Source: Bdellovibrionales bacterium (lineage in GTDB: Bacteria; Bdellovibrionota; Bdellovibrionia; Bdellovibrionales; UBA1609). Taken from it: a stretch of DNA of 64,000 bases. The position numbers and the translations under genes were made by a program. The notes under the pieces were generated by a model, which saw only the letters and a list, made by a program, of their open reading frames with translations, searched no databases and had not been told where the DNA came from. Below, in pieces: positions 9,789 through 63,646 of this stretch; the stretch's first letter is position 1, and every line of letters starts with the position of its first letter. Location of the stretch: contig OZ242172.1 in the NCBI GenBank assembly GCA_965205645.1, forward strand, positions 576,122-640,121. The letters run 5' to 3'.

Positions 9789-9797
9789 TTAAAGAAA

Positions 9798-12294: not shown

Positions 12295-12295
12295 T

Positions 12296-12332: not shown

Positions 12333-12368
12333 TTCAGACATTTGTAAAAATGATTACAAAATTGTAAG

Positions 12369-12486
12369 TTTCTCTATTTAAAAACTCTACTCAAAACGAG
12401 TTCGGCTTTGGTGCAGAGCGACTGTAAGTCTGCTTTGCAACAAAACGCATGTCTGAGTTTTTGAGTAGAGTTTTTAAATAGAGAAA
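12369..12486. repeat. B-repeat hairpin element (118 bp)
   Basis: tttctctatttaaaaactctactcaaaa-cgagttcggctttggtgcagagcgactgtaagtctgctttgcaacaaaacgcatgtctgagt-ttttgagtagagtttttaaatagagaaa. The 28-nt outer arms are perfectly complementary. Confidence 0.9.
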
Positions 12487-12505
12487 TATACATCATAATT
12501 AGTGA

Positions 12506-12574
12506 AGTCGTGACAGGTGTGCAGCGGAGTTGCGGCGAAGTCACTCCCCCTTGGGGGGCGGGGCTTAGGTCTGG
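12506..12574 (+). repeat. A-repeat copy (short-core variant)
   Basis: agtcgtgacaggtgtgcagcggagttgcggcgaagtcactcccccttggggggcggggcttaggtctgg. Shares the trailing ggct(a/t)aggtctgg with the copy at 9798. Confidence 0.8.
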
Positions 12575-12770
12575 TAATTGGTGAAAAATCTAAGGAAATA
12601 TGTTTAAGAATCCGAATTTATATTAAGATAAAGATTGTGTCAGTAGACATCATCTGGAGAGATAACACAATAATAAACATTAAAAGTAATCATTGGACAT
12701 TAGTAAAAGCTGACAGAGTGATTAAGACATAATAAAGGATGAAAAAAAAATTAACGAAGGGGAATAGGCA

Positions 12771-14360: not shown

Positions 14361-14512
14361 CAGTCGTGACATGCGTGCAAGGATTCACAGCGGCCGGCGA
14401 CTCGCCGCAGACATTTACTTGTAAACTTAATTAGCAAAGTTGTGACATGCGTGCAAAGAACTCGCGGCGAAAATGTCACCGGCAACTCGCCGGCCACTTT
14501 GAAGGGGGTGGA
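14361..14512 (+). repeat. Two tandem A-repeat copies (variant with a CCGGCGACTCGCCGG-type hairpin)
   Basis: cagtcgtgacatgcgtgcaaggattcacagcggccggcgactcgccg... then tttacttgtaaac...gtgacatgcgtgcaaagaactcgcggcgaaaatgtcaccggcaactcgccggccactttgaagggggtgg. Confidence 0.75.
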
Positions 14513-15128
14513 ATGGATTTTGCTAGAAGAGCTTGCAGGATTGAAAAGTGTATTCATTCACAAGCAAGAGGGCCTTCAGGAAGAGGATTTTAAATTCTTT
14601 TTTTCTAAGATTCCTGCTGAATCCAGAAAAATTATGCTAAATTATGGTTTGAAGATAATAGATACTCAGGATTCAAAGGTACGAAAAGCTTATAAAGGTC
14701 ATCAATTAAGAGGTCGTGGTGTTATAAAGCTATTATCTGAGATATGGAGTATAAAAAGACCTGCTCCGTCTAAAGTAAAGGAAATTTTTCACGATTTTGC
14801 CGATATACTGAAAAAGCTGAAAGGAAAACAAAGAAAGGACACAAGTCTAAGGATACTGGAATACTTAATTGATAATACGGGCTTAGATTTAAGGACATGG
14901 AAGAAAGCAGAGAAGTTGATTATAGAAGAGGGAATTTTAACCAGAGGAGGTGTTATGGACATAAGAGAACATATTAAAGAAAAAGGCCGTTGGGAAGGAA
15001 GACAGGAACGAAACAAGGAAGTTATTTTAAATATGCTAAAAGAGAAGGCAGATATTTCCTTTATTTCCAAAATTACAGGTTTGTCTGAGAAAGAAATAAA
15101 GAAACTAAAAAACGGTTTTTCATTATAA
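14442..15128 (+). pseudogene. Rpn/YhgA-like recombination-promoting nuclease (putative transposase), C-terminal fragment only
   Basis: The C-terminus GRWEGRQERNKEVILNMLKEKADISFISKITGLSEKEIKKLKN resembles the tail characteristic of Rpn-family proteins. No PD-(D/E)XK core is visible, and the first ~24 codons are read from an A-repeat copy. Confidence 0.4.
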
Positions 15129-15440: not shown

Positions 15441-15497
15441 CAGCTCATTCAGTGAAAATCACTCAATCTTATGACATACATCAAAAGGGATGTGGAG

Positions 15498-16658
15498 ATG
15501 ACTCAAAAGAAAAATTCTGATGCATTAATAAAGCCAGTTTTTAGTCATTTAACATTTGTCATCACATTGTTTCTACAATCAACCTTTATTAGCTTGTTAT
15601 TAGCACACCCTACATTCGCCCGTTCATCCATGACAGACCGGCCGATCATTGCTGTGGCAACCAATATCGATAGAGAGAGAAAAGGTGTGAATAATGAAAA
15701 AAAATGTATGGGTCACAAAACTTGTGAGATGTGTGAAAAAATTTATGGTGCGGACAATGATAAAATAGCTTGTCAAAAAGAGAGCCTTAACAAAGTAAAT
15801 CATTTGAATAAAATATATGCTTTTTTAAAAGATGGAGATTATGAGGATTGGGATAAATTTTTCCTGGATGAAGATGAAGTGAATCTAAAATATCTAAAAG
15901 ATTACTTAAATATTGGCGATTCCGGTATAGAAAATCTTATTAAGAATCATTGGAGTGAAGATCAACTGATAAAATTCTTACAATTGATTATTGATAAAAT
16001 ACAGGTAGCGGAAATTTTATATAACTTAGCTGGAGGAAAATATCTTTTAAAAGAAATACTTCTAGCAATAAGAAATAAAACCGATCAATGTATTGGAAAT
16101 AACACTCTTAATGATTGTAATGATTCACCACACGGACATTATGGCAGAACTGGTTATGGTGTAGATTATAGTTTAGACGATGACACCGTTAATATTTGTA
16201 CTGAGGATAAAAACCCCAGTTGGTCATATACATTGGATCATCTTTTTCCATTTCCCAAAGAATTCATTTGGAAGAAAAGGAGTTTTACTTTTTTAGATGA
16301 TGATAACACGTCATTATATGACGCTTTATCTTGTTTCTCATTAATAGATAAAAGTAGCTTTTCAATTACACATTACAATGTATTTTCTTATGCTAGTATG
16401 AAAGAAAATGATTTTATTTTTAATATGGCTTATGATTTATTAAATGATACTTGTGAAGATTTTGATACTGATGAGAACGATTATAAACAACTCTGCAAAA
16501 AAGTTTCGTTTTGTTGGATTCATGAAGTAGATGAGAAACAAGGAGAGAGGAGTTTTAAATATCTTGTTGAGTTTGACTATGATGATGGTTTAGAAGGGGA
16601 TAGCGGTGGTTCTAACTATAATCAATGTGCACCAAGACATTTTGCCGAATTCTTTTAA
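15498..16658 (+). CDS. Chimeric paralog family member 5: PstS-derived leader/signal peptide fused to the Cys-rich family domain
   Basis: N-terminus MTQKKNSDAL...LLLAHPTFARSSMTDRPIIAVA is homologous at DNA and protein level to the PstS N-terminus MTQKKRSNLL...LLLATSTLAYSSMTDMPLVAAS. The rest carries CMGHKTCEMCEKIY, LKDYLNIGDSG, CKKVSFCW and NQCAPRHFAEFF. Confidence 0.75.
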   Translation: MTQKKNSDALIKPVFSHLTFVITLFLQSTFISLLLAHPTFARSSMTDRPIIAVATNIDRERKGVNNEKKCMGHKTCEMCEKIYGADNDKIACQKESLNKVNHLNKIYAFLKDGDYEDWDKFFLDEDEVNLKYLKDYLNIGDSGIENLIKNHWSEDQLIKFLQLIIDKIQVAEILYNLAGGKYLLKEILLAIRNKTDQCIGNNTLNDCNDSPHGHYGRTGYGVDYSLDDDTVNICTEDKNPSWSYTLDHLFPFPKEFIWKKRSFTFLDDDNTSLYDALSCFSLIDKSSFSITHYNVFSYASMKENDFIFNMAYDLLNDTCEDFDTDENDYKQLCKKVSFCWIHEVDEKQGERSFKYLVEFDYDDGLEGDSGGSNYNQCAPRHFAEFF

Positions 16659-22545: not shown

Positions 22546-22728
22546 GTTTTTACTTCCCGTGTTTTTACTTCCCGTATTTTTACTTCCCGTTGCTTCGTGC
22601 TGCTGCAGACTTTGATCTCTAATTACATTTTTACTTCCCGTTGCTTCGTGCTGCTACATGCCCGGATTTCTAATCATGTTTTTACTTCCCGTTGCTTCGT
22701 GCTGCTACATACCCGGATCTCTAATTAT
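22546..22728. repeat. Tandem array between sufD and sufS: 15-bp unit x2 followed by a 51-bp unit x3
   Basis: Units begin (g/a)tttttacttcccgt at 22546, 22561, 22576, 22627 and 22678. The three long units continue tgcttcgtgctgct(g/a)ca... On the gene strand each unit ends ACGGGAAGTAAAAA(C/T), and the last is followed directly by the sufS ATG. Confidence 0.9.
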
Positions 22729-24146
22729 GTGACTTGTGCTTTTTTCACTTCATTCGCTAAATTTAATAATACGCTTTTATTGCGATGAATCATCTGATTT
22801 AAATGCTCCAAGCAACTATCCGCTGGAAACTGATGTAAAACATCCTTTATATAAGCAAATATCAAAAGCTCCCAAGCAGACTTCATGTCCAATCCACGAG
22901 TTTGTAAATAAAATATTTCGTTCGGATCAAAATTTCCCACCGCAGAACCATGCTGCGCCTGCACCTCGCTGCAATCAATCGCTAATTCCGGTTGGATGCA
23001 AGAGTGCGCACGATCACTTAATAATAAATTCTTGGCCGACTGACTGCAATCCACACCCTTTGCCCAAGATTCAACGTGTACCCGACCATGAAAAATACCC
23101 TTGGATTCATCATTCAATATCCCACGGCAAAATTGACGAGAATAACCCCCTGGCTTTAAATGATGCACATTAAACCGATGATCACTCTGATTCTTATTCT
23201 TTAAAATAGATAAACCTAATAATGTACTACGAGCTTTTTCCCCAACATGCACCACATCCGCCCTGTCCCTGGAAAACCGAGAACCTAAGCTAAAATGCAA
23301 ACGATCTATACTTGATTCTTTCTCCATCTCACTAATCGATTGATTAAAATAACAAGAAGAGCCACTGCCTTGCTCCACCCGAATCCATCGTAAAGCCGAC
23401 TGCTCAGAGTGATACACATTGGATACCGTATTCACTACTGCCTGTCCGTAATGAGAAATGTTCTCCACTAAAGTGAGCCGAGCTCCCTTACCCATAAAAA
23501 TAAAATTCCACCCCCCTAAGGGGGTTACTTTCGCCGCGGCTTCATTTACGTTATTGTCACTATCTTGCAAATCATGTTTACCCAGTGTCTCTGCCGACTC
23601 GGCGGCAAATACAGAATGAATGTGCAAAGCCTTAGAAGACTCATACCCATCCGGTATAAATAAAATATACCCACTTGGAAAAGCCCCAGCTAAATGAAAT
23701 AAACCATCTCCATTTCCAGCTACTTTTTTTTCTCCACGAAAACAATCCAATAACCAAGACCAACACGGAAAATCAGCATTCAACTGATCCCAAGTGCACC
23801 AACGCAAACCATCATCAATAGACGCTTCCACTAATTGATCATTATGAAAATGCAAACGATCTACATTTGGAAAATCAGCAATTAACTCTTCATTAATACT
23901 GTGCCGATCACTTACATTATTGCGCTCGGCATTCTGAAAAATGCTACGTAAAATATTCTGCACATAAGTAAACTGCCACCACTTGTCCGAACCCGACGGA
24001 AATCCCTTCTTTAAAAATTGAGCAAAATGCTTGTCCCGCATTTCACCCAATACCCGCCGCGAGTCCTCGGACGATAAGCCAAGCCATCCTTGCCGCTCCT
24101 GCTCAAATTCCTTTTTTAAAAATTCTATCCATCTGTCATCTGTCAT
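22725..24146 (-). CDS. sufD: Fe-S cluster assembly protein SufD (carries an in-frame A-repeat insertion)
   Basis: SufB/SufD C-terminal signature ...AQHGSAVGNFDPNEIFYLQTRGLDMKSAWELLIFAYI. Internal GKHDLQDSDNNVNEAAAKVTPLGG is encoded by the repeat at 23508-23583. Confidence 0.8.
   Translation of the reverse strand: MTDDRWIEFLKKEFEQERQGWLGLSSEDSRRVLGEMRDKHFAQFLKKGFPSGSDKWWQFTYVQNILRSIFQNAERNNVSDRHSINEELIADFPNVDRLHFHNDQLVEASIDDGLRWCTWDQLNADFPCWSWLLDCFRGEKKVAGNGDGLFHLAGAFPSGYILFIPDGYESSKALHIHSVFAAESAETLGKHDLQDSDNNVNEAAAKVTPLGGWNFIFMGKGARLTLVENISHYGQAVVNTVSNVYHSEQSALRWIRVEQGSGSSCYFNQSISEMEKESSIDRLHFSLGSRFSRDRADVVHVGEKARSTLLGLSILKNKNQSDHRFNVHHLKPGGYSRQFCRGILNDESKGIFHGRVHVESWAKGVDCSQSAKNLLLSDRAHSCIQPELAIDCSEVQAQHGSAVGNFDPNEIFYLQTRGLDMKSAWELLIFAYIKDVLHQFPADSCLEHLNQMIHRNKSVLLNLANEVKKAQVT
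23508..23583 (-). repeat. A-repeat copy (long-core form) inserted in frame in sufD
   Basis: ccacccccctaagggggttactttcgccgcggcttcatttacgttattgtcactatcttgcaaatcatgtttaccc. Confidence 0.9.
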
Positions 24147-25844: not shown

Positions 25845-27581
25845 TTAAGAACATTCTAATAAGCGATAAAAATCTGATTGGATTTTTTTTAGCTCTTTGT
25901 CAGATCGGCCGCCAAAACGAAAAGTAAACATGCTCTGTGTATTGGAAAGACGTGCCAGACCCCAAGCTTTCCCCGGAAAACATACCCGCACACCATCTAC
26001 TAAACATAACTGCGCTTCAGAATATTTCGCATAATGATCTTTGACTCGATTCAAAAGTTTGTGTGCCCGTGCTATGTCATTAACCGCTATACGTATCTCA
26101 TTCGTATGAACTCCAATGTTAGTAGGCAGTATTTTATCTAATAACTCTTCTACACGATACACACCACTCTCACATAAAATCCGTAACAAACGTAAAGTTG
26201 CATATACACCATCATCTAAAAAATAACCTTCATCACAAAAAAAGTAATGTCCGCTAAACTCACCACCGAATATCGCCCCTAATGCCAATGTTCGCCGACG
26301 AATTAAACTATGCCCCGACCCCCCAAGGGGGAGTGGTTTCGCCGCGGCTTCATTTACGTTATTGTCACGTCTTTGCTTCTCAAGGGGGAGTGGTTTCGCC
26401 GCGGCTTCATTTACGTTATTGTCACTATTTTGCAAATCATGTTTACCAAGTGCCAACGCAGATTTCTGCGTTTCTAAAAAATCAAAGAACCATGGGGCGC
26501 ATTTTACATCTGCGACAATAACACCGGCATCCTTATTCCGTTTCCATATATCAGAAATAAAAATCGCCATTAGCTCATCTCCATATAGCACCCTACCGGA
26601 TTCACTGATCACGACTAAACGATCCCCATCCCCATCCAAAGCCACTCCAAACTTTGCTCCACAGCTTCTTACCTTCTGACGTAAATCATTTAAATTTTCA
26701 TCTAAGGAAGGATCTGGATGATGATTCGGAAAACGTCCGTCCGGATCTGCATATAACCATTCAGCATTTAAACCTAACTCCTTAAAAACTGCTTGTGCCA
26801 CCGGCCCCGCTGCTCCATTTCCGCAATCCACTACAATGCTTCCCTGATCCTTCCACATTTTCCCTAACTGAGAAAATTTCTTTTTCATTAACTGAACATA
26901 AAAAGATATCACTGTATTATCTAAACTTTTGACTGACTTCTTCTCACGATTGATATTTGTTAAATGTCCACTGTCCGATACACAATGCTTGTCAGATAAA
27001 GATGTGGATTTTGTCTTTGCTAACAAAGAATCATCCGTAGATAATTGAAGGATAATATCTTTTAACTCTTGCAACTTCTCATCACATAAAGTTTCTTCAT
27101 ATACAGAAAATTTAAAGCCGTTAAAGTCAGCTGGGTTATGACTTGCCGTCACCATCACAGAAGCTGCGGTATCAGGAAAAAAATGGGAAGCAACAAAACA
27201 AACCGGAGTGGATACTAAACCTAAAAATTGTATCGGTGCTTGACCGGCAGTGAGTCCCTCTATTAAAGCATTTGTTACGTCTGGACTGCTTAAGCGACTG
27301 TCATGTCCCACTGCTACAAAGCTTAAAGACATAGGTGTGTCTAACAGTTTATCTTTTTTACTACTATGAAATGCCTTTTTGTCTTTTGTGATACTACGTT
27401 CACTGTTATTCCTAATGTTTGTGCGATATGAGATAAACTTAGCAAAAGCTATCCCCAAGTATCGCACGAAATCTAAATCAAAATCTTTTCCATATATTCC
27501 ACGAATATCATTTTTTCTAAAAATATCCGGATTCCATTTCATGTGCTTCAACCTAATATCCATCTCATACTCATTATGCAC
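25845..27581 (-). CDS. Phosphomannomutase/phosphoglucomutase (carries 1.5 in-frame A-repeat copies)
   Basis: Active-site TASHNPADFNGFKF, Mg site ALDGDGDRLVV, GHSLIRR sugar loop. The insertion ALGKHDLQNSDNNVNEAAAKPLPLEKQRRDNNVNEAAAKPLPLGG lies directly before GHS. Confidence 0.85.
   Translation of the reverse strand: MHNEYEMDIRLKHMKWNPDIFRKNDIRGIYGKDFDLDFVRYLGIAFAKFISYRTNIRNNSERSITKDKKAFHSSKKDKLLDTPMSLSFVAVGHDSRLSSPDVTNALIEGLTAGQAPIQFLGLVSTPVCFVASHFFPDTAASVMVTASHNPADFNGFKFSVYEETLCDEKLQELKDIILQLSTDDSLLAKTKSTSLSDKHCVSDSGHLTNINREKKSVKSLDNTVISFYVQLMKKKFSQLGKMWKDQGSIVVDCGNGAAGPVAQAVFKELGLNAEWLYADPDGRFPNHHPDPSLDENLNDLRQKVRSCGAKFGVALDGDGDRLVVISESGRVLYGDELMAIFISDIWKRNKDAGVIVADVKCAPWFFDFLETQKSALALGKHDLQNSDNNVNEAAAKPLPLEKQRRDNNVNEAAAKPLPLGGSGHSLIRRRTLALGAIFGGEFSGHYFFCDEGYFLDDGVYATLRLLRILCESGVYRVEELLDKILPTNIGVHTNEIRIAVNDIARAHKLLNRVKDHYAKYSEAQLCLVDGVRVCFPGKAWGLARLSNTQSMFTFRFGGRSDKELKKIQSDFYRLLECS
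26319..26447 (-). repeat. A-repeat, one truncated plus one full long-core copy, in frame in the phosphomannomutase gene
   Basis: ccccccaagggggagtggtttcgccgcggcttcatttacgttattgtcac, a 12-nt joint, then caagggggagtggtttcgccgcggcttcatttacgttattgtcactattttgcaaatcatgtttacc. Confidence 0.9.
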
Positions 27582-27602: not shown

Positions 27603-27708
27603 CTCCCAAAGAGAGTGACTTTCGCCGTCCGCGAGTTGCGACCCCCCAAGGGGGAGTGGTTTCGCCGCGATTCCTTCGTACTCATGTCACTATCTTGTAA
27701 ATGATATG
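27603..27708 (-). repeat. Two adjacent A-repeat copies (one partial), intergenic
   Basis: ctcccaaagagagtgactttcgccgtccgcgagttgcg then accccccaagggggagtggtttcgccgcgattccttcgtactcatgtcactatcttgtaaatgatatg. Confidence 0.8.
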
Positions 27709-27710
27709 GG

Positions 27711-27828
27711 TTTCTCCACTTAAAAATCTTATTCAAAACGAGTTTGGCTTTGAAGCAGAGCGACTGAAAGCTTGCTCTGCGGCAAAACGCATGTTTGAGC
27801 TTTTGAATAAGATTTTTAAGTGGAGAAA
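27711..27828. repeat. B-repeat hairpin element (118 bp)
   Basis: tttctccacttaaaaatcttattcaaaa-...core...-ttttgaataagatttttaagtggagaaa. Same core as 12369, different but self-complementary arms. Confidence 0.9.
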
Positions 27829-27843
27829 TGACTACCCCTGGAC

Positions 27844-27900
27844 TCCCTCACAAAGGGAGGTGACTTTACCGCAATTTCCTGCACTTATGTCATAATCTTG
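27844..27900 (-). repeat. A-repeat copy (diverged), intergenic
   Basis: ctccctcacaaagggaggtgactttaccgcaatttcctgcacttatgtcataatcttg. Confidence 0.65.
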
Positions 27901-29777: not shown

Positions 29778-30026
29778 TGTATAAACTCGTTATGATTCCA
29801 TTCAGTTTTATTTCATTAAATCAAAGTACGTATTGAACACTTTTATTCTTAATATAATACGCTGCGCTTATTTGCCATGTTTTAAAAATAAAGAAACTAA
29901 AAACATTATGACAAAGTCCTCTTATAGTCTTGTTGATCCGCCCTGTCAATAAGTCCTGAAATCGCATTATCTATTAAGAAATCAAATGGATACTCCGAAG
30001 TGGAAAATAAGTGGAGAATTAAAAAA

Positions 30027-30977
30027 ATGAAATATTATCTGTGGTTGTGCTTAGTGCTACTAAGCATGGGTATTTTTTGTATCCAATGTTCTATGATTTC
30101 TTCCCCTCCAGATATACCGACTGTCACCAGGGATGCTCCGGAAAATGGATTGGACAATGAGTCTTTGTTCCCAAAGTGTGAGAGAGGAGAATGCTGTTCT
30201 GAAAATAAGGAGTGCGAAAGAATCTGTGATAATATTTTTAACAGTTTTGTACCAGCTAAGGATCGCTGTAGATCTTTGCCGCAACCATTAGTATTTGATA
30301 TTGGAGATCTGGTCAGAGGGTTGGAACACCCGATTGTTCAGGATTTAAGGCGGGTGGATGTGAAGGATGAATTTCGTCGTTTATTGGCCTTAGATTATAT
30401 GGTGTTGGTACGTATTGTAGAACGTTATAGAATAGATAAAGCACGAGAACTACTTTTATGGTTTGCTGAAGAAGATGCAGTAGCTAAGGAATTACTTAAA
30501 TTAAGGAGAGAAGATCGTAATCATTTAATGTATGCATTACTGGCTAGCGCAGGAGATCGTACTTTACCTGGATCTGCGGAAAATGGCTTAGCCAGAAACG
30601 TATCTTTTGATAAAACATTTTTTGCATTGCTTATAGATTTTCTTAATAATGATATGTTGCAAATTGTTCATGACATGCTTCGAGGGGAAATGTGTGCTCC
30701 AGACTTTGGAGAAGGTAAAAAAGCTGAGCTTTGTATATTGCGTATTTATTGTCGTGAAAGAGTTGGGTTAGATAATCAATATGTACATAATGAAGATTTG
30801 CGCACTGATATTTCTTTTCGTCTGGAAGATAAACAGTTTTTTGATTATATTCGACGAGAAGTTTACAATTCTTCTTTAGATGATTTTAATTTATCACAAC
30901 CTTTGATGAATGATATGACTTGCCAAATTGTTTGTAATGATACTTACCGTGGATGTGAAGGATGGAATTTACAATAA
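30027..30977 (+). CDS. Cys-rich secreted protein, paralog family member 6
   Basis: Signal peptide MKYYLWLCLVLLSMGIFC. CERGECCSENKECERICDNIF, LLWFAEEDAV and C-terminal CILRIYCRE motifs. Confidence 0.65.
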   Translation: MKYYLWLCLVLLSMGIFCIQCSMISSPPDIPTVTRDAPENGLDNESLFPKCERGECCSENKECERICDNIFNSFVPAKDRCRSLPQPLVFDIGDLVRGLEHPIVQDLRRVDVKDEFRRLLALDYMVLVRIVERYRIDKARELLLWFAEEDAVAKELLKLRREDRNHLMYALLASAGDRTLPGSAENGLARNVSFDKTFFALLIDFLNNDMLQIVHDMLRGEMCAPDFGEGKKAELCILRIYCRERVGLDNQYVHNEDLRTDISFRLEDKQFFDYIRREVYNSSLDDFNLSQPLMNDMTCQIVCNDTYRGCEGWNLQ

Positions 30978-32101
30978 AAAAACTACTCGCTACGATTCGT
31001 TCTTTTAGAGTGGGTGATTTTCAATGTGCATGTGCGCGCGTTATTGTCACATGTGTGCAAGGGATCATTACATACTTTCGCAGGTATTCACGCGCTATTG
31101 GTTTATTAGTGGCTTTAGTGGCATTGCTTGTGCACTGTACTTCGCCGGAACAACGGGCGACTCGCCGGATTGGTTCAACTCGTTTGGATACAAGAATTCC
31201 TGTGCGAAATGTATATAATGAGATATACGGTAGTTACCGAAAGCAGGATTATGATGGACCTTCGTGCAAGGATGAGGATGAAGATCGTAGCCAGTCTAGA
31301 AATGACAGAGAGGAAAACTGCGAATATATCTGTCGTGAGATGTATAATGAACACAGTCGGGAATGCGGAAGTGCTCCAGCAGAATTAGTGCATGCACTAT
31401 ATGATTTTTTTAAAAAGATGCGTCGTATTCGGCAGCCCAGTTCTTTATTCCGACAGGTAGATATTTCTAATTTTGGTGTGATGATTGATTTGGATGTGGA
31501 GCCAATGTTGGAGTTAATCTCTGATTGGAGTGTAAGAGAAACTAAATTATTTTTAATATGGACGGCAGAAACCATAGCGGTATCTGCGGCCATCCGACAT
31601 CATGATAGAGATAATCTGATCTTGGAACATGCTTTTGAAAAATTGGGTAAAGAACACGATTATGCCAGAGGACTGGAAGAGAGAGTTTTAGTGGGTTTTA
31701 GTGAAGATCTACATGGATTTACAGAAACTTTCTTATCTCTTGCTCAACACCAAAGAAATGAAGCAGCTTTTGTCATTGCTCATCGGGCGATAGAACAGGT
31801 GTGTGAGAATGAATCCTGTATCGTGCGTGCCTATTGCACAAGAGAAAGTTATGATCGGTTATTGAATGCTCCTCGATGTCCTTACCAGACTTCTGGCCGG
31901 TTAGCTGGTTCTAGGTCTAATCATTGTTATGTACATGGGGCGGAAGTCTGGAGTTATTGGGAAATATTAAACCGAGATAGAAAAATTGAGGACAAAGAAT
32001 TTCCATTTGACAGTGAATATAAAATCAATCAAGCTAAATGTGATAGTGAAGAAATATGTGGAGAAGATATAGACAGTTCTTGTAAAAGGAACTTGGATTA
32101 A
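30962..32101 (+). CDS. Cys-rich secreted protein, paralog family member 7 (start uncertain)
   Basis: Hydrophobic segment AIGLLVALVALLVHC, acidic linker, ENCEYICREMY, FLIWTAETIAV and CIVRAYCTRE motifs. The first ~60 codons overlap a degenerate A-like repeat and the end of member 6. Confidence 0.6.
   Translation: MEFTIKKLLATIRSFRVGDFQCACARVIVTCVQGIITYFRRYSRAIGLLVALVALLVHCTSPEQRATRRIGSTRLDTRIPVRNVYNEIYGSYRKQDYDGPSCKDEDEDRSQSRNDREENCEYICREMYNEHSRECGSAPAELVHALYDFFKKMRRIRQPSSLFRQVDISNFGVMIDLDVEPMLELISDWSVRETKLFLIWTAETIAVSAAIRHHDRDNLILEHAFEKLGKEHDYARGLEERVLVGFSEDLHGFTETFLSLAQHQRNEAAFVIAHRAIEQVCENESCIVRAYCTRESYDRLLNAPRCPYQTSGRLAGSRSNHCYVHGAEVWSYWEILNRDRKIEDKEFPFDSEYKINQAKCDSEEICGEDIDSSCKRNLD
31038..31170 (+). 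repeat. Degenerate A-like repeat inside the annotated 5' end of family member 7
   Basis: cgttattgtcacatgtgtgcaagggatca... and ...tacttcgccggaacaacgggcgactcgccgg resemble the gtgacatgcgtgcaagg and ccggcgactcgccg parts of the 14361 variant. Confidence 0.4.
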
Positions 32102-33224: not shown

Positions 33225-33237
33225 AGAGGAGGATATA

Positions 33238-33840
33238 ATGAGAGATACTATTCAGTGCAGAGTATTTTACTATCTAAAAACCATGGTTTTTTTGTTTGCT
33301 TTATTTCCAATGATTAGTTTCGCATCACCTTTAGAGAATGTATGGGATACATTGTTTCCAACTACTAGAGCAATCTCAAGAAGTGAAGTTCAGAACCTTT
33401 TACAAAATTCTTCTGAAAAAAGTATAATGCATATTCAAACCTATAAAGGATGCGAACCAGCCTTTGTAACTCTTGGAACAAAAGTATGGTTGAGCATGAC
33501 GGCACAAAAGACGGAAAAAAAGACCTGTTCTGTTGCTGTTCATCCAGGCAATAAAATATCCGTTAGTTTTAGCAATAAAACTGTTCTTGTGGCACCAATG
33601 AGCAGTAGAGCGGTCGTTGGTGATATAAAATATAACCTAGCCATTGGTGAGATAGATGGACACAATGTTTTAATGGTTGCATATGATGAAAATGGTACAA
33701 TCTCTTATGCAATATATACTGTTTATGATTTAAATGACAATGTAGTAGATTCTTATCTACAAGATGAATGGGATACATGGAAAGATTCTATTAGATATTG
33801 TGTTATTGCACCTGTATATCAACAATCAATGTGTGATTAG
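33238..33840 (+). CDS. Small secreted hypothetical protein, tandem duplicate copy 1
   Basis: Signal peptide MVFLFALFPMISFA|SP, Cys-containing ~180-aa mature part. Near-identical to the next gene. Confidence 0.6.
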   Translation: MRDTIQCRVFYYLKTMVFLFALFPMISFASPLENVWDTLFPTTRAISRSEVQNLLQNSSEKSIMHIQTYKGCEPAFVTLGTKVWLSMTAQKTEKKTCSVAVHPGNKISVSFSNKTVLVAPMSSRAVVGDIKYNLAIGEIDGHNVLMVAYDENGTISYAIYTVYDLNDNVVDSYLQDEWDTWKDSIRYCVIAPVYQQSMCD

Positions 33841-33882
33841 TATTCCAATAAATAGTTTCAATTCCATTCAAAGAGTAGTGTA

Positions 33883-34497
33883 ATGAAATATATCATTAAA
33901 TGCAGGTGTTTTTATTATCTAAAAACCATGGTTTTTTTGTTTGCTTTATTCCCTATCATTAGTTCCGCATCACCTTTAGAGAATTTATGGGATACATTGT
34001 TCCCAACTACTGGAGCAATCTCAAGAAGTGAAGTTCAGAACCTTTTACAAAATTCTTCTGAAAAAAGTATAATGCATATTCGCACCTATAAAGGATGCGA
34101 AGCAGTCCCCTCTGTAATTCTTGTAACTCTTGGAACAAGAGTATGGTTGAGCATGATGGCACAAAAGACGGAAAAAGAGACCTGTTCTGTTACTGTTCAC
34201 TCAGGTAATAAAGTATCCGTTAGTTTTAGCAATAAAACTGTTCTTGTGGCACCAATGAGCATGAAACTGGTCGTTGGTGATATAAAAGAAAACATAGCCA
34301 TTGGTGAGATAGATGAACACAATGTTTTAATGGTTGCATATGATGAAAATGGTACAATCTCTTATGCAATATATACTGTTTATGATTTAAATGACAATGT
34401 AGTATATTCTGCTCTACAAGATGAATGGGATACATGGAAAGATTCTATTAGATATTGTGTTATTACACCTGTATATCAACAATCAATGTGTGATTAG
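33883..34497 (+). CDS. Small secreted hypothetical protein, tandem duplicate copy 2
   Basis: Same sequence as copy 1 apart from scattered substitutions and a 4-aa insertion (AVPSVILV region). The 3' flank tagtattccaataaatagtttcaattccattca is also duplicated. Confidence 0.6.
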   Translation: MKYIIKCRCFYYLKTMVFLFALFPIISSASPLENLWDTLFPTTGAISRSEVQNLLQNSSEKSIMHIRTYKGCEAVPSVILVTLGTRVWLSMMAQKTEKETCSVTVHSGNKVSVSFSNKTVLVAPMSMKLVVGDIKENIAIGEIDEHNVLMVAYDENGTISYAIYTVYDLNDNVVYSALQDEWDTWKDSIRYCVITPVYQQSMCD

Positions 34498-34616
34498 TAT
34501 TCCAATAAATAGTTTCAATTCCATTCATAGAAAATCTATTTTTCCTATCTATTGAATTTTCTGTTTATAACAAGAGCAATTTGAGTTCAACATTCAAATA
34601 TGCTATGACTTCTAAA

Positions 34617-34944
34617 GGGGATTGCGGGTGCTTGCTGAATTTATTTTAATAAATTTAGAGGAAAGTCCGGACTCCAATGGCAACGCAAAAGGTGAAAACC
34701 TTTCCACCGGAAACGGTGCGGACAAGTGGAACAGAAAGTATATCCGAGTCTTTATTGCTGTAATGAGTGGTGAGGATTGCTGGAGTGAAATCAGCTAAAC
34801 TCTGCGTGGAGCAAGATCAAATAAGGAAGTGCTTGAGTACCGCCAATACGATACTTCCGGGTCGATCGCATAGATGAATAAGTGCCTCCTCTGAGCTTTT
34901 GTCGGTTAAGCCAGAGAAGACAGAATCCGGCTTACAGCAACCCC
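34617..34944 (+). ncRNA. rnpB: RNase P RNA, bacterial type A
   Basis: Universally conserved GAGGAAAGTCCGGACTCC (P4 5' strand) and GACAGAATCCGGCTTACAG (P4 3' strand). P1 pairing ggggattgc / gcaacccc. Ends approximate. Confidence 0.9.
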
Positions 34945-35452
34945 TTAAAACCGGCCCTTTTAAAAAATATATCCTGTTTTTTTTTCGATTGTCGTGGCCA
35001 CGCACGTAGAGGATACAATTCCTCAATATCAGCTAAAATAGCAATTTTTAAGTCTTTTCTATACACTTACTATAAAATTTTGGATGTTTTCTATATAGTT
35101 GATATAAATTTTAGGGCTTTTCTATATATTACTGCATATAGTACTTCAATAATATAAAACAAGTAATAATGAGGTTTTAAAAAATATGAATAACCCGAGT
35201 AATCCTTTTAATCCAAGTTCAATAGTAACACCTACATTATTTGCTGGAAGAAGTCAGCAAGTGGTGAATGTTTTAAAAAAACTATCCAATGTGAGGGAAG
35301 GAATCTAAAATCCTTAGAAAGAGAATAAACAAAATTTTTTATTTTTTGCTTATACAAGATTTTCTGTCCTGTATTATCCGCTCCCCTTCGGTCGCAGATA
35401 CTATAGGCCGCTTCTTCGCTTCGAATTCTACCTTTTGTTTTTTAAATAAAAG

Positions 35453-35526
35453 TGATGGCGGTAGGACTCGAACCTACGACCTACGGCTTAGAAGGCCGTT
35501 GCTCTATCCAGCTGAGCTACGCCACC
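35453..35526 (-). tRNA. tRNA-Arg (anticodon UCU)
   Basis: Minus strand GGTGGCGTAGCTCAGCTGGATAGAGCAACGGCCTTCTAAGCCGTAGGTCGTAGGTTCGAGTCCTACCGCCATCA folds as a cloverleaf. 7-bp acceptor stem, anticodon loop CUUCUAA, TPsiC loop GGTTCGAGTCC, no encoded CCA. Confidence 0.9.
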
Positions 35527-37721: not shown

Positions 37722-37826
37722 CGCCCCCCAAGGGGGGATGACTTCGCCGCGATTCCTCTGCACGCCTGTTACAACTTTGCCGATTATGTTTACAAATAAA
37801 AGCCTGTGGTAACTTGCTGCCGCCAC
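37722..37826 (-). repeat. A-repeat copy plus adjacent variant tail, intergenic
   Basis: cgccccccaaggggggatgacttcgccgcgattcctctgcacgcctgttacaactttgccgattatgtttacaaataaaagcctgtggtaacttgctgccgccac. Confidence 0.75.
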
Positions 37827-40322: not shown

Positions 40323-41612
40323 TTGAAAAAAATGTTTAACGTAAAATTATTTCACACTTGTATAAATATTAGACGATATATTCGTAAGTACTTAAAATAT
40401 ATAGAATTTAATAAAATTTTATCAGAAAATACCTGTCGAGCTTACCATATAGATTTAAGACAGTTGTTAATAAATTATCATCCGGTGCTTGGTAATTTAT
40501 TTTCTTTAAAAGGTTGGAAACTATACACTGATTTGTCTCAGGATGAGTCTGTTTTTGGCGTAGAGAGTGACTTATTTTCAGACATTGTTCATCAGCAGGT
40601 TGGTGGCGGGTTGCTACGGGCACTTACTTGTAAACATGATGTGCAAGATAGTGACAATAACGTAAATGCAGCCGCGGCGAAAGTAACCCCCTCTGGGGGT
40701 GGCAGGTCACCACGGGCACTTACTTGTAAACATGATGTGCAAGATAGTGACAATAACGTAAATGCAGCCGCGGCGAAAGTAACCCCCTCTGGGGGTATGG
40801 ATCCATTAGAGGAGAAGTGGGTAGGGGAGATGATGAAATACAGTTTTAAGAAGTGGGCTTCATTATCTCCGGCATCTCGTAATCGAAAGTATGCTTGTTT
40901 GAAAGCTTTTTTATCTTGGTTATTTGTTCATGGAGGAGTGCAGGTGGATATGCAGAGTTGGATTAAGCTACCACGTGTTCCTCAACGTATCCCTTATTAC
41001 TTATCTGTAGATGAGGCTCTTTACTTAATAAAGACTGTGCAAAAACAGGCAAACGCAAAAGAAAGAGATCGGGATTTATTATTAATTCTTTTGCTATATG
41101 GTGGCGGACTGAGGGTGAGTGAGGCTTGTGGTATGCAGTGGAATCAAGTGGATATAGCGAATGGTTGTTTACGTGTATTAGGTAAGGGTGGAAAAGAAAG
41201 GTTAGTGACAGTGCCAAAAGTGGTGTTAAAGGAGTTAGGTCGCTGTCAAAGTCTTCAGCATGACAAACATAATTTGCAAAGCAATAAAAAGGGAGCAGCG
41301 GAATCGCGGCGAAACGTTCCTCGCGACCCGCGAGTTTTTCCTGGGTTAGCGGTTAGGCAGGCTTATGAGATCGTTCGACGTTGGGGTCAGCGTGCGGGTT
41401 TAAGTAAACCGTTAAGTCCTCATGTTTTGCGACACAGTTTTGCGACACATTTATTAAGCAGTGGATCTGATTTACGTACTTTACAGGAGTTATTGGGGCA
41501 TCGTTCTTTGAGTGCTACTCAAAAGTATACGCACTTACAGATGTCACATTTGAATCGTTTGTTAGAATCTTATCATCCTTTACGTAATCGTCAGCGCGAT
41601 AAATCACGTTGA
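40323..41612 (+). CDS. Tyrosine site-specific recombinase XerC/XerD family (three in-frame A-repeat insertions)
   Basis: LRVSEA (Arg I), HVLRHSFATHLL and LLGHRSLSATQKYTH (catalytic Tyr). Two 32-codon tandem insertions LTCKHDVQDSDNNVNAAAAKVTPSGG in the N-terminal domain and a variant copy in the catalytic domain. Confidence 0.85.
   Translation: MKKMFNVKLFHTCINIRRYIRKYLKYIEFNKILSENTCRAYHIDLRQLLINYHPVLGNLFSLKGWKLYTDLSQDESVFGVESDLFSDIVHQQVGGGLLRALTCKHDVQDSDNNVNAAAAKVTPSGGGRSPRALTCKHDVQDSDNNVNAAAAKVTPSGGMDPLEEKWVGEMMKYSFKKWASLSPASRNRKYACLKAFLSWLFVHGGVQVDMQSWIKLPRVPQRIPYYLSVDEALYLIKTVQKQANAKERDRDLLLILLLYGGGLRVSEACGMQWNQVDIANGCLRVLGKGGKERLVTVPKVVLKELGRCQSLQHDKHNLQSNKKGAAESRRNVPRDPRVFPGLAVRQAYEIVRRWGQRAGLSKPLSPHVLRHSFATHLLSSGSDLRTLQELLGHRSLSATQKYTHLQMSHLNRLLESYHPLRNRQRDKSR
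40617..40796 (+). repeat. Two tandem long-core A-repeat copies (96-bp period) in frame in xerC/D
   Basis: cgggcacttacttgtaaacatgatgtgcaagatagtgacaataacgtaaatgcagccgcggcgaaagtaaccccctctgggggt occurs at 40617 and again at 40713. Confidence 0.9.
41259..41334 (+). repeat. Variant A-repeat copy in frame in the xerC/D catalytic domain
   Basis: catgacaaacataatttgcaaagcaataaaaagggagcagcggaatcgcggcgaaacgttcctcgcgacccgcgag. The tail and cgcggcgaa core are recognisable; the head resembles the partial copy at 27603. Confidence 0.6.
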
Positions 41613-41645
41613 TATATTGGTAAGTATTATTGATGCGTCTCTTAG

Positions 41646-41686
41646 ATTTAAATATTCTGCTCAAAAGCTCAGACATGCGTTTTGCC
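41646..41686 (+). repeat. Half B-repeat, left of the A copy
   Basis: gatttaaatattctgctcaaaagctcagacatgcgttttgcc. Confidence 0.7.
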
Positions 41687-41752
41687 CCCCAAGGGGGAGT
41701 GACTTCGCCGCGGCTGCATTTACGTTATTGTCACAGCTTTGCATATTTTGTG
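41685..41752 (-). repeat. A-repeat copy (long-core form), intergenic, flanked by two half B-repeats
   Basis: ccccccaagggggagtgacttcgccgcggctgcatttacgttattgtcacagctttgcatattttgtg. Confidence 0.85.
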
Positions 41753-41770
41753 ATTGTTTCTTAAGGGGGA

Positions 41771-41807
41771 ATCCTGCTCAAAAGTTCAAACATATGTTTT
41801 ATCCCCC
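41771..41807 (+). repeat. Half B-repeat, right of the A copy, same orientation as the left half
   Basis: atcctgctcaaaagttcaaacatatgttttatccccc. Confidence 0.7.
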
Positions 41808-47043: not shown

Positions 47044-47785
47044 TTAATAATTTTTTAATTCTAGCTTGAGTGGTTTTAGTTTTACGGGCAGTGTGAATCA
47101 TACTGATTGCCTGAGATTTAATTTTCTTAATAGGACAAAGATAAGCTTTGTTTAATATTCTCTTTGTTTTTTTAACAGCAGTTAGATCTAATTGTTTTAA
47201 GTGTTTCAATAATGTTTGTAAAAAAGTATCACATTGATTTGCACTGCCAATAAAATGCACTAAGCTAGCTTGCTGCGCTTCTTTTGCGGAAAAAGGTAAG
47301 GCGCTTAACATAAAAAATCGTGCCCAGGAAAATGGTATTTTTTTTAAAATAAAAGGGCTAATCATGGAAGGCACTAACCCTAAACGTGTTTCACTAAATT
47401 GAAAGCGTGAACCAAGCTCTGCAATCACTACGTCACATACACTCATTAGGCCAATACCACCACCCATGATAAAACCATGTACCTTTGCAATCACGGGTAC
47501 TTTGCAGTGATCTATTTGTTCTAATAAAGTAAATAATTGGCTTAAGGACTGCTTGCTAAAAGTTTTTTCATTTGTTAGCCATTTTAAGTCTGCACCGCTG
47601 CAAAACGCTTTGCCTTTTCCACTAAGTACAACCGCTTGAACAGTAGAATCTTGCTCAATAGATTTAAAAATTCTGGATAAGCCATGAATGACCTCAGGAT
47701 TTAAAGCATTGCGCTTTTCCGGTCGATTCAAAGTGATAAAAATAATATCTTTATTTTTTTTTAATTCCAGAAGGGATCTAGCCAT
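47012..47785 (-). CDS. Enoyl-CoA hydratase/isomerase family protein (likely methylglutaconyl-CoA hydratase by context)
   Basis: FCSGADLKW and GFIMGGGIGLMSVCDVVIA crotonase motifs. Downstream of the carboxyltransferase gene. The last ~10 codons and the stop lie in an A-repeat copy. Confidence 0.8.
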   Translation of the reverse strand: MARSLLELKKNKDIIFITLNRPEKRNALNPEVIHGLSRIFKSIEQDSTVQAVVLSGKGKAFCSGADLKWLTNEKTFSKQSLSQLFTLLEQIDHCKVPVIAKVHGFIMGGGIGLMSVCDVVIAELGSRFQFSETRLGLVPSMISPFILKKIPFSWARFFMLSALPFSAKEAQQASLVHFIGSANQCDTFLQTLLKHLKQLDLTAVKKTKRILNKAYLCPIKKIKSQAISMIHTARKTKTTQARIKKLLTPSKGPAGRR

Positions 47786-47806
47786 TATTTATCCTTTGCT
47801 CGTGTT

Positions 47807-57075: not shown

Positions 57076-57141
57076 CACCCCCAAAGGGGGTTACTTTCGA
57101 CGCGGCTGCATTTACATTATTGTCACTACTGTGCAAATTAT
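57076..57141 (-). repeat. A-repeat copy (long-core form), intergenic
   Basis: cacccccaaagggggttactttcgacgcggctgcatttacattattgtcactactgtgcaaattat. Confidence 0.85.
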
Positions 57142-57149
57142 ATTATTCT

Positions 57150-57266
57150 CATAGGATTAAATATCCTGCTCAAAAGCTCAAACATGCGTTTTGCCCGCAG
57201 AGCAGACTTAACAGTCGCTCTGCGTCCAAAGCCGAACTCGTTTTGAGCAGAATATTTAATCCTATG
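57150..57266. repeat. B-repeat hairpin element (117 bp)
   Basis: cataggattaaatatcctgctcaaaagctcaaacatgcgttttgcccgcagagcagacttaacagtcgctctgcgtccaaagccgaactcgttttgagcagaatatttaatcctatg. Confidence 0.9.
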
Positions 57267-57439
57267 AAATCAATAAGCATTAATATGAAATAATCTCTAA
57301 GGAAAACAATTGTTAATACAAGTATCTATGTCTGTGTGATTTTTAAACGAGGAAGATAAGGGTATATTTAAAAACAGGCTACAAGGGCAGGAGACATAGC
57401 GTATTGAGAAACTAGAACTATCTTGCTAGACTTTTTGCT

Positions 57440-62172: not shown

Positions 62173-62383
62173 CAGCTTTCTCCTAATTTTTATAATATTT
62201 TAACACACTGCTTATGAGCAAAAATATAAGGTATTCACAACATATCATTCGCTCAGAACCAATGAAATACAATACACTCATGTAATAATTACACCAATTG
62301 ATATAATTAGTATTGTATTGTGATCCAGTTTTTTAATATAATAAATGGATAAAATAAAGATTTTTTTTCAAAAGGAGATTGGA

Positions 62384-63646
62384 ATGATTCAAAAGTTGCT
62401 GCTTGGATTAAGTTTCATAGCGGTATTATGTGTGACTACATCTTGTCAGTACTTGAAACTTGAACATTATCGGAACAAATATTCTCAATATCAGCGTCAA
62501 AGTGAGTCTAAGGCGATTATTCATCCTCTTGAGAAAAAGAATATTGGCGGGTGGGTGCATTTTAAACACGTTAAGAAAAAAGGAAAAGAACAAACTGCTT
62601 TGGTGACAGCGAAAATTACTGGATTAGAACCAAATAAAAAATATGGATTTCATGTCCATGAATATGGCGACTGCTCGGAACAAGGTCAGTATGTGGGAAA
62701 ACATTATAACCCTCATTATACTCGTCATGGATTGCCAGGAGATGAACAAAGACATTTAGGTGATATGGGTAATTTATCCGCTGGAGCAGATGGTACAGCT
62801 TTTTACAATAAACTTTTAAGTATGTGTATGTGGGGGACTGTGGGACGTTCTATTGTCATTCATGCAAAAATAGATGATGGACAAAGTCAGCCGTCAGGTA
62901 ATGCTGGTCCTTATATTGCTTGTGGTGTCATTGGCTATACCTCTTCTACTGAAGAAGGTGACATATTGGAAGATGAAAGTGAGTTGATATGGGAAGATGA
63001 AAAACAAGCTAAAAAAGCATCTCATGTAACAGTGAAGAAATTAGAATCATCCAAGCCAGCAGCTAATCAACAGCAAGATCACCCGCAGCAAATACCACCA
63101 AAGCCACCGATGTTTACGTCTTCACCGCCATCTACAGAATCTCCGAAACCTGCTGTGCTTAAAGTAGCCCCAACTACTTCAGCACCAGCACCTAAAAAAG
63201 CAGTACTACCTACTAAGGCAGTAAAGTCCGAGGCAGTACTACCCAAGGCAGTAAAGTCCAAAGCAGTACTACCCAAGGCAGTAAAATCCAAAGCAGTACT
63301 ACCCAAGGCAGTAAAATCCAAAGCAGTGCTACCCAAGGCAGTAAAGTCCAAGGCAGTAAAGTCCAAGGCAGTAAAGTCCAAGGCAGTACAATCTAAGACA
63401 GAGGTAAAGTCTGCAACAGAAACAAAGCCTGTAAAAAAGGAAAAGCCTAAGGAAGTAAAATCCAAGGCAGTAAAACCGAAAGTAGTTGCAGAACCTACCG
63501 CAGCATCGCCGAAAACAATGGAATTAAAAACTTCAGCAGCGCCAGCGCCAGTGCCACCAAAGTCGACAGTTACACCATCTCCTTCGGGTAAAAAAGGAAC
63601 TGTGCCATCATCTTCCACAATCGAGACCAACGAAAAAGCCAAGTAG
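62384..63646 (+). CDS. sodC: Cu,Zn superoxide dismutase with Lys/Ala/Pro/Val-rich repetitive C-terminal tail
   Basis: aaggag SD upstream of the ATG at 62384, signal/lipobox-like VLCVTTS|C. GFHVHEYGDC, HLGDMGN and SIVIHAKIDD metal-site motifs, then AVLPKAVKSK repeats. Confidence 0.85.
   Translation: MIQKLLLGLSFIAVLCVTTSCQYLKLEHYRNKYSQYQRQSESKAIIHPLEKKNIGGWVHFKHVKKKGKEQTALVTAKITGLEPNKKYGFHVHEYGDCSEQGQYVGKHYNPHYTRHGLPGDEQRHLGDMGNLSAGADGTAFYNKLLSMCMWGTVGRSIVIHAKIDDGQSQPSGNAGPYIACGVIGYTSSTEEGDILEDESELIWEDEKQAKKASHVTVKKLESSKPAANQQQDHPQQIPPKPPMFTSSPPSTESPKPAVLKVAPTTSAPAPKKAVLPTKAVKSEAVLPKAVKSKAVLPKAVKSKAVLPKAVKSKAVLPKAVKSKAVKSKAVKSKAVQSKTEVKSATETKPVKKEKPKEVKSKAVKPKVVAEPTAASPKTMELKTSAAPAPVPPKSTVTPSPSGKKGTVPSSSTIETNEKAK
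63200..63397 (+). repeat. In-frame tandem repeats in the sodC tail (30/33-bp unit x5, then 15-bp unit x3)
   Basis: gcagtactacccaaggcagtaaa(g/a)tccaa(a/g) reiterated from 63200, collapsing to gcagtaaagtccaag from 63353. Confidence 0.9.

Follow-up and report, generated by a model that had tools for sequence, protein, structure and literature searches.

A gene for a Xer-like tyrosine recombinase in a Bdellovibrionales bacterium (GTDB lineage UBA1609) carries three in-frame copies of a short dispersed repeat. In all the host genes that we found in the surrounding stretch, such copies are read on one strand and in one frame. The gene lies within 64,000 nucleotides of contig OZ242172.1 (GenBank assembly GCA_965205645.1, forward strand, positions 576,122 to 640,121), a stretch that we call the window and to which positions refer unless a relative is named. 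The repeat, here named A, has a sister subfamily, A2, and is often joined to a second, palindromic repeat, B. We consider it likely that A/A2 is a selfish, lineage-specific repeat compatible with open reading frames (ORFs), whose copies within genes have been filtered by how well the encoded peptide is tolerated. The source genome is small, with a contig of 1.56 Mb.

The Xer-like ORF matched Pfam Phage_integrase (E = 1e-36) and has a two-domain architecture; the closest PDB structures were Pyrococcus XerA and E. coli XerD. Its likely start is the ATG at 40332, which would give a protein of 426 aa and agrees with the start of the database protein. The full tyrosine-recombinase set R-K-H-R-H-Y is kept (six of six residues), so that the three in-frame insertions leave all catalytic motifs in place, as the preliminary description of this DNA had stated. 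The features of the gene, numbered in codons from the TTG that opens the ORF, are:

40323 to 41612, plus strand: ORF of the Xer-like tyrosine recombinase, 429 codons from TTG, identified by its Phage_integrase match
41112 to 41528, plus strand: span of the catalytic codons R264 (41112), K288 (41184), H367 (41421), R370 (41430), H393 (41499) and Y402 (41526)
40602 to 40697, plus strand: A-repeat unit 1, 96 nt, aa 94-125, N-terminal domain, insertion site 1; absent from orthologues of 310-350 aa
40698 to 40793, plus strand: A-repeat unit 2, aa 126-157; an extra tandem unit, absent from the ~97%-identical relative L001
41259 to 41336, plus strand: A2-subfamily copy, aa 313-338, catalytic domain, insertion site 2; holds a nested B in the relatives L001 and L002

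The name XerC/D, which had been given to the gene at first, proved too precise. Against the NCBIfam equivalog models with their curated cut-offs, the protein scored 210.6 bits where XerC (TIGR02224) requires 335, and 203 bits where XerD (TIGR02225) requires 330. Relatives without inserts likewise fell below both cut-offs (214 and 207 bits for P0010), and because they score equally low, the low scores are a trait of the clade. "Xer-like tyrosine recombinase" is the defensible name, and the protein is not assignable to XerC as opposed to XerD.

Constraint on the gene was assessed against three relatives: L001, an ENA contig ~97% identical to the window across the upstream 5.4 kb; L002, a contig from a sponge metagenome at dS 0.63 from the window; and L004, a syntenic contig. 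Nei-Gojobori dN/dS over shared codons was 0.18, 0.17 and 0.12, respectively, and the neighbourhood (a Na+/H+ antiporter, an acyltransferase, a 2-hydroxyacid dehydrogenase, a sigma-54 activator, xer and two large proteins) is kept in four related contigs. The Xer-like protein therefore appears to be under purifying selection and is presumably active. One could argue instead that xer, and perhaps also the sufD and phosphomannomutase genes described below, is decaying in a reduced genome and that the inserts mark early pseudogenisation. The small genome, the scores below the equivalog cut-offs and an insert in the phosphomannomutase that replaces a conserved strand would all fit such decay; however, the relatives without inserts score below the cut-offs as well, and the xer ORF is intact in four assemblies despite their differing insert states, with low dN/dS and with catalytic residues and synteny kept. 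We regard decay as very unlikely, and the idea that this xer gene might be a decayed paralogue fails on its synteny with orthologues and its dN/dS of 0.12-0.18.

Units 1 and 2 stand in tandem in the N-terminal domain. As first described, two 84-mers with 100% identity (40617-40700 and 40713-40796) lie 96 nt apart and in frame; the repeat as a whole measures 96 nt (32 codons), and its two copies (40602-40697 and 40698-40793) are 96% identical. All 4 differences between them fall within the first 15 nt (GGTGGCGGGTTGCTA versus GGTGGCAGGTCACCA). Differences clustered in this way do not look like the outcome of a simple recent duplication followed by random mutation, and the second unit at site 1 may represent an adjacent second insertion or gene conversion of the 84-nt core. 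In silico translation reads both units as ..LTCKHDVQDSDNNVNAAAAKVTPSGG.. within the ORF, and an example of a junction peptide between host and insert is ..VTPSGGMDPLEEK...

The third copy reads HDKHNLQSNKKGAAESRRNVPRDPRV and is located between R264/K288 and the H367-x-x-R370 box. It is 80% complementary across 49 nt to an intergenic sequence at 37743-37791 and was recovered by nhmmer with an iterated family model at E = 1e-4 to 5e-4. The third copy is genuine, and it is a member of the sister subfamily A2 (core ..GGAATCGCGGCGAA..): its position in frame in the catalytic domain, between the Arg and the HxxR box, had been given correctly, whereas its reading as a diverged A copy gives way to the A2 assignment.

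Among the 120 best Xer homologues, a length of 310-350 aa is typical, and orthologues of this length lack the inserts. When the window protein was aligned with 20 homologues, it had extra residues at two places only: site 1, after ..SDLFSDIVHQQV in the N-terminal domain, and site 2, after ..KELGRCQSLQ in the catalytic domain. Because three proteins from other lineages (P0007, P0026 and P0050) carry unrelated indels at both places, sites 1 and 2 appear to be permissive loops. An AlphaFold model of modest quality (mean predicted local distance difference test score, pLDDT, of 65; 20-sequence alignment; low-confidence C-terminus) gave aa 94-156 a pLDDT of 27-37 and no secondary structure, and aa 323-332 a pLDDT below 50. 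The extra segments present in Xer and in the phosphomannomutase of three other genomes of the clade showed no significant similarity to one another as shared repeats.

Comparison of close relatives indicated that the inserts change by whole elements. At site 1, L001 has one A unit and the window two. At site 2 in L001, the A2 copy is broken by 150 nt (50 codons), a B-family copy with perfect 26-nt terminal inverted repeats (TIRs) that is flanked by the direct repeat CAT(A/G)ATTTGCAA and read through in frame as ..LLKSSDMRFAAEQTRSRSAGKAELVLSKHFE..; L002 carries an orthologous, shorter B at the same site, also in frame. Since both relatives carry B, parsimony suggests that the window lineage lost it at site 2 through deletion between the direct repeats, with the frame kept. 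The inserts at both sites are older than the split between the window and L002 (dS 0.63), and L004 encodes a 353-aa Xer and has no A or B across 21 kb. Further A-family copies are present in L001, L002 and L005, the last a contig of 18.6 kb that shares its sponge metagenome of origin with L002; L003, another close relative, also derives from a sponge metagenome. A second locus of B presence and absence lies at L001 17583-17706, where B stands between enoyl-CoA hydratase and carboxyltransferase genes; it is absent at window 47761-47805, and the two genomes are 87-97% identical there. A search with the phosphomannomutase turned up no close orthologue, the best being 46% identical.

The recurrence of these sites also bears on whether the repeats were mis-joined into genes during assembly of a metagenome-assembled genome (MAG). 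Short repeats are a classic source of misassembly, and an exact 96-nt tandem can be collapsed or expanded by an assembler. Yet the same insert sites recur in assemblies made independently from different samples with different pipelines (ENA ERZ25067264, and ENA ERZ922809 with Logan SRR1576521), the frame is always kept, and the host sequence on either side runs colinear with that of orthologues. We consider an assembly artefact extremely unlikely; only the number of units at site 1, one or two, is really open to assembly doubt.

The xer copies belong to a larger set. The window holds 14 A/A2 matches at 11 loci and 5 B copies, and a 32-nt A core pattern matched 7 times where 100 shuffles gave an expectation of 0. 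Four of the A-family loci are genic, one is at the start of an ORF and six are intergenic, as are all five B copies. Because no more than 4 of the 11 loci are genic in a window that is 85% coding (binomial P = 3e-4 under random placement), most genic insertions appear to have been purged. Outside xer, the genic copies are:

23511 to 23606, minus strand: A copy in SufD (..AAESAETLGKHDLQDSDNNVNEAAAKVTPLGG..), in frame; ORF 22725-24146, minus strand
26319 to 26470, minus strand: about 1.5 tandem A copies in the phosphomannomutase/phosphoglucomutase PMM (..LGKHDLQNSDNNVNEAAAKPLPLEKQRRDNNVNEAAAKPLPLGG..), in frame; ORF 25845-27581, minus strand

All genic copies in the window (xer site 1, xer site 2, SufD and PMM) lie on the coding strand and in one common frame, which bears out what had been noticed at the outset. 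In L005, two A2 units occupy that frame in the N-terminus of a MurF-like protein, assigned from its motif alone, between ..IDSREI and GGFFAIKG, and a decayed A copy in a 413-aa ORF is in the same frame. At the DNA level, six of six independent genic sites thus share one strand and frame, which has a chance of (1/4)^6 = 2e-4 if four open frames are assumed to be equally usable. At the protein level, a profile of the sense peptide run against 1.84 billion representative proteins matched only seven: the window PMM and SufD, a PilM-like protein (P0121) with five tandem A units plus B and A2, an Amidase_2 protein, a TTL-like protein, exonuclease III and Ogt. A four-frame query added a pyridoxal-phosphate (PLP) enzyme of the PALP family (P0128), encoded on the window's own 1.56-Mb contig, with two units. 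Six further hosts in the same frame were therefore found at the protein level, beyond the sites seen in DNA. Intergenic copies face both ways relative to neighbouring genes (41685-41751 versus 9801-9863, for example), and insertion is for this reason not intrinsically strand-locked.

Some apparent host proteins were set aside. The sole antisense reading that turned up in a called protein, in P0129, is almost certainly an ORF-calling artefact: it is an N-terminal extension of a pilin, with alternating copies 5' of the G/MSLVELL prepilin site (the slash marking the cleavage point). Similarly, long stop-to-stop ORFs with B in MAG OZ241921 are not genic insertions, as they are arrays 5' of G/FGLVE prepilin N-termini; the arrays of this MAG (OZ241921.1) have periods of 213 and 300 nt and stand ahead of a paralogous Cys-rich pilin-like family. 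A/B arrays that are open in frame also occur directly 5' of prepilin-type genes (G/[F or M]-x-L-V-E) in L005 (7785-8100 and 10860-11263) and in L007, L019, L021, L030, L041, L044 and L053 (OZ241921.1). Across such open arrays, ORF callers lengthen prepilin-type proteins by 100-400 residues.

It had been proposed that the common frame reflects stop codons, the element being tolerated only in the sole stop-free frame of six. Six-frame translation of 13 copies supported this within the sense strand: the used frame is open, and the two other sense frames of A hold 2-6 stops per copy. The antisense strand, however, is largely open. Nearly every copy is free of stops in one antisense frame (..GVTFAAAAFTLLSLSC.SCL..), and most copies are open across their core in the two others (..GGYFRRGCIYVIVTILHIMFT.. 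and ..RGLLSPRLHLRYCHYLA.HVY..); in A2, a second sense frame is open as well (a 120-codon ORF in L005). No conserved gene uses the antisense frames or the second sense frame of A2. Stops can account for which of the sense frames is used, but they leave unexplained why the sense strand alone is used, and we find it improbable that a stop-codon filter acted alone.

The peptides encoded by these frames differ in character. In the used frame, the grand average of hydropathy (GRAVY) is -0.3 to -1.8 and 19-33% of residues are charged; the ends are Gly/Pro-rich, with the terminal GC hairpins of the element translated to GG..P and (T)P.GG. Of the antisense frames, two reach a GRAVY of +0.5 to +0.9, with bulky hydrophobic residues making up 32-59% of the peptide; the third lies at about -0.3 to -0.6 and has many aromatic and basic residues, and all three contain 1-2 Cys. 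Given that the antisense frames are open yet unused, two of them hydrophobic and all Cys-containing, we infer that selection on the peptide explains the bias better than stop codons do.

If the peptide matters to the host, it could also have been kept for a benefit. The same peptide stands in frame in at least 12 unrelated proteins, and the inserts at sites 1 and 2 have persisted since before the window and L002 diverged; such a pattern might be produced by adaptive modules, for instance a linker or interaction motif common to many proteins and perhaps connected with host association. But the hosts are unrelated cytoplasmic housekeeping enzymes, copy number differs between near-identical strains, and intergenic copies are conserved as well as genic ones. 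The xer copies of the window are 94% identical to the sufD copy, even though the insert at site 1 is older than a divergence of dS 0.63. Where the xer and sufD copies differ, the change is in every case non-synonymous, which argues that the peptide is unconstrained, and the peptide has no Pfam family and is predicted to be disordered. We therefore judge an adaptive role to be rather improbable.

The anatomy of the two families is distinct. An A/A2 unit is ~96 nt long and has a small hairpin at each end, such as GGCGA-C-TCGCC or ACGCAGA-AA-TCTGCGT at the 5' end and the GC-rich CCCCC-TCT-GGGGG, CTCGCG-ACC-CGCGAG or CCGGCAA-C-TCGCCGG at the 3' end; the sequence of these terminal hairpins changes from copy to copy while the pairing is retained. 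As a whole element, A/A2 folds weakly (z -0.4 to -2.4), and A lacks TIRs. B is ~125 nt long and palindromic (z about -10), with an internal hairpin and TIRs of about 26-34 nt (26 nt and perfect in L001 xer; 34-nt arms at 12363-12492). It is flanked by an imperfect 8-12-nt direct repeat, and its presence or absence distinguishes the window from L001 at two loci. The readings of these repeats as CRISPR, intein, intron or small RNA were rejected on anatomy and on the lack of any Pfam or Rfam match. As regards inteins and self-splicing elements, the inserts are 26-32 aa long and match no Pfam family, the xer region has no Rfam family, and A folding is weak.

Outside conserved genes, the A, A2 and B copies of the window are:

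9681 to 9863, plus strand: intergenic B (9681-9802) followed by the 3' part of an A2 (9801-9863)
12364 to 12557, plus strand: intergenic B (12364-12491) followed by the 3' part of an A2 (12493-12557)
14425 to 14473, plus strand: A-family copy over the called start of ORF 14442-15128, probably 5' of the true start
27642 to 27900, minus strand: intergenic A2 (27642-27707), B (27706-27828) and an A-like fragment (27850-27900)
37725 to 37790, minus strand: intergenic A2, the nearest kin of the third xer copy
41643 to 41801, minus strand: intergenic composite downstream of xer, with an A copy (41685-41751, antisense to xer) between B half-elements
57078 to 57272, minus strand: intergenic A (57078-57143) and B (57149-57272)

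A further A-like antisense fragment, at 31039-31076 (within 30962-31080), reached E = 0.04 in nhmmer with the first A model. It overlaps the called 5' end of ORF 30962-32101, which has a lipoprotein-like signal sequence further downstream; translation may in truth begin within the repeat or beyond it.

The two families are closely associated. In L005 as in the window, each full copy of B adjoins A-family sequence on at least one side, and where both parts of A are present, B stands at one fixed point in A with a duplicated CAT(G/A)ATTT.. segment on its flanks. B also occurs with no detectable A in the Bdellovibrionales MAGs OZ241921.1, JANQSP01, JANQSX01, JAPPLG01 and CBDETO01. The exact A core pattern was found in none of the GTDB species genomes or JGI metagenomes, two collections that do not contain the genome of the window. 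From these two observations, A/A2 appears to be restricted to the narrow clade of the window, and B to be older and more widespread.

Such an association raises the possibility that solo A is immobile. The mobile unit would then be an A5'-B-A3' composite, or B would home to a fixed 12-nt site in A, and genic A copies would be what is left once the unstable palindrome of B had been deleted between the direct repeats on its flanks. The adjacency of all full B copies to A, at a fixed point with duplicated flanks, is what such a system would produce, as is the state of xer site 2, with orthologous B in L001 and the more distant L002 and a clean A2 in the window; xer site 2 is, however, the sole site at which B in one close relative is matched by a complete A unit in another. 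The long hairpin of B and its occurrence apart from A in other MAGs, which points to an older repeat that spreads independently, suit this scheme too, but tandem A copies that have no B (five in the PilM-like protein and two each in xer, the MurF-like protein and the PLP enzyme) would require a separate process of amplification. We hold the composite to be a possible but less likely account of the genic copies.

We favour instead a selfish A/A2 repeat filtered by the tolerability of its peptide. A/A2 (~96 nt, 32 codons, hairpin ends), often joined to the ~125-nt B, which resembles a MITE (a miniature transposable element with inverted repeats), would have colonised xer. Copies would land or be copied genome-wide, and within genes only those in sense orientation and in a single frame would persist. 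That frame has no stops and would yield a hydrophilic, low-complexity peptide (..KHDLQDSDNNVNEAAAK..), with the hairpins supplying flexible Gly/Pro caps (GG..P / TP.GG), so that the host protein could carry it as an extra disordered loop. Antisense copies, hydrophobic with Cys in two of three frames, would be removed through selection. Resident copies would then grow and shrink by whole units, and a nested B could drop out through deletion between the 12-nt direct repeats on either side of it, always with the frame kept and with Xer remaining under purifying selection throughout.

Several observations weigh against this account. For A itself, we found no transposase, no target-site duplication and no pair of filled and empty sites, as close relatives differ solely in copy number and in the presence of B. 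Transposition of A is for that reason only a presumption; A may equally well have spread by recombination or as an A-B composite. No transposase was present among the ORFs scanned with Pfam (about 30 in the window), and no cognate insertion sequence (IS) was identified for B. A is not palindromic (z about -2 or weaker), unlike the Rickettsia palindromic elements (RPEs) considered below. The frame statistic is based on just six independent sites, and the four-frame protein search was insensitive, returning two proteins and missing known sense hosts. The low pLDDT of the inserts is soft evidence, given the modest AlphaFold model. Finally, the insert in PMM is no simple loop addition: it replaces the conserved (I/V)MWK strand that stands just before (S/T)GHS in all orthologues and in the P. 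aeruginosa enzyme, and the element's terminal ..PLGG takes the place of this strand. Not every insertion is therefore a clean addition, and fixation of slightly deleterious copies in a small population is likely. The PMM/PGM protein is also ~100 aa longer than is typical, with extra lineage-specific segments near the N-terminus and in the linker between domains 1 and 2.

A more elaborate arrangement, which we think unlikely, is that A and B form a nested two-tier system, in which B homes into one 12-nt site in A and is later cleanly lost, or, more speculatively, that the Xer-like protein or another tyrosine recombinase mobilises the hairpin-ended A in trans. If the nested system were real, housekeeping proteins would vary reversibly and with the frame preserved, as loops in them, one of which adjoins the Xer active site, alternated between in-frame inserts of 26 aa and of 76 aa.

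In-frame fusion of small repeats with conserved genes is well established for RPEs (Ogata et al. 2000 Science 290:347; PMC2229807, PMC10969869). R. conorii has 19 genic RPE insertions, each RPE family encodes a conserved peptide, a guanylate kinase that bears an RPE is translated and active, and the effect of RPEs on host genes is thought to be neutral or slightly deleterious (PMC2229807, PMC10969869). The 107-bp Correia element, enterobacterial repetitive intergenic consensus (ERIC) sequences and Yersinia palindromic (YPAL) sequences are also known as in-frame genic repeats (Delihas 2007/2008, PMC2229807). Like RPEs, A is a short dispersed repeat (~100-150 nt) of a small genome, present between genes as well as in frame in unrelated conserved housekeeping genes that remain intact, with a conserved peptide encoded by each family. 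Unlike RPEs, A occurs in Bdellovibrionales, which belong to another phylum, such that homology to RPE-1 to RPE-10 is not expected; it is shorter (96 nt), has no long palindrome (z about -2) and is often tandemly amplified in genes, and the palindromic B nests in it, also in frame. A/A2 is an RPE-like family in Bdellovibrionales, a new example of a phenomenon that is already known.

B resembles ORF-compatible MITEs (Correia/NEMIS, ERIC and YPAL) in its TIRs, internal hairpin, length of ~125 nt, flanking direct repeats and mostly intergenic placement, and it is sometimes read in frame, as in the xer genes of L001 and L002; as with the 107- versus 155-bp Correia forms, genic placement follows which frames are open. 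It differs from them in standing almost always at one position in another repeat and in forming arrays 5' of prepilin-like genes in a related MAG. The small GC-rich terminal hairpins of A (CCCCC..GGGGG, CTCGCG..CGCGAG and GGCGA.TCGCC), in which pairing is kept over sequence, recall repetitive extragenic palindromic (REP) sequences and bacterial interspersed mosaic elements (BIMEs), and the fixed site of one element within another repeat recalls IS elements that target REP/BIME. REPs, in contrast, are 20-40 nt long and extragenic and have GTAG/CGTC heads and REP-associated tyrosine transposases (RAYTs). We saw neither such heads nor a RAYT, the search for the latter being limited to the Pfam scans of ~30 window ORFs. 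We found no paper describing the A/B family in a literature search of incomplete coverage.

The window contains other repeats and features. Three tandem 51-nt repeats, 84-90% identical and unrelated to A/B, lie at 22577-22727 between the sufD stop and the start of a sufS-like aminotransferase gene, and tandem repeats of 15 and 30 nt (GCAGTAAAGTCCAAG-like) form a long array at 63172-63486, which falls within ORF 62345-63646 and is hence a coding low-complexity repeat. Paralogous Cys-/Asp-rich proteins with signal-peptide-like N-termini and no Pfam match are encoded at 9994-13913, 15471-16658, 30000-32101 and 33236-34420; they include a tandem pair, 33238-33840 and 33883-34497, that is 91-93% identical, and A/B composites occupy some of the spacers among these genes. 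A bacterial RNase P RNA and a tRNA are at 34616-34950 (plus strand) and 35453-35526 (minus strand), respectively. L001 carries two copies of the RNase P RNA region (960-1342 and 3393-3773, ~96% identical to the window), one on either side of a 2-kb stretch that bears an AAA_14/DUF4143 gene and is missing from the window; the arrangement looks like an insertion that duplicated its target. GC skew in the window switches with gene strand in blocks of 5-15 kb and shows no single replication-related trend, with a GC content of 33-41%.

At a practical level, such repeats inflate and fragment gene calls, depress family-model scores and cause strain-level length polymorphism in marker genes. As an instance of frame choice, A/A2 allows a test that is cleaner than most: two sense frames are closed by stops, and the antisense frames are largely open yet unused, which makes peptide chemistry (a hydrophilic core with Gly/Pro caps) a candidate for the filter. 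The RPE phenomenon, in which translatable selfish repeats survive in essential genes, would thereby extend from Rickettsia to unrelated small-genome Bdellovibrionales. By analogy, a small genome whose close relatives are sponge-associated fits the drift-dominated setting of RPEs, and the A/A2 family supports the view that RPE-like repeats may arise recurrently in host-associated bacteria with small populations.

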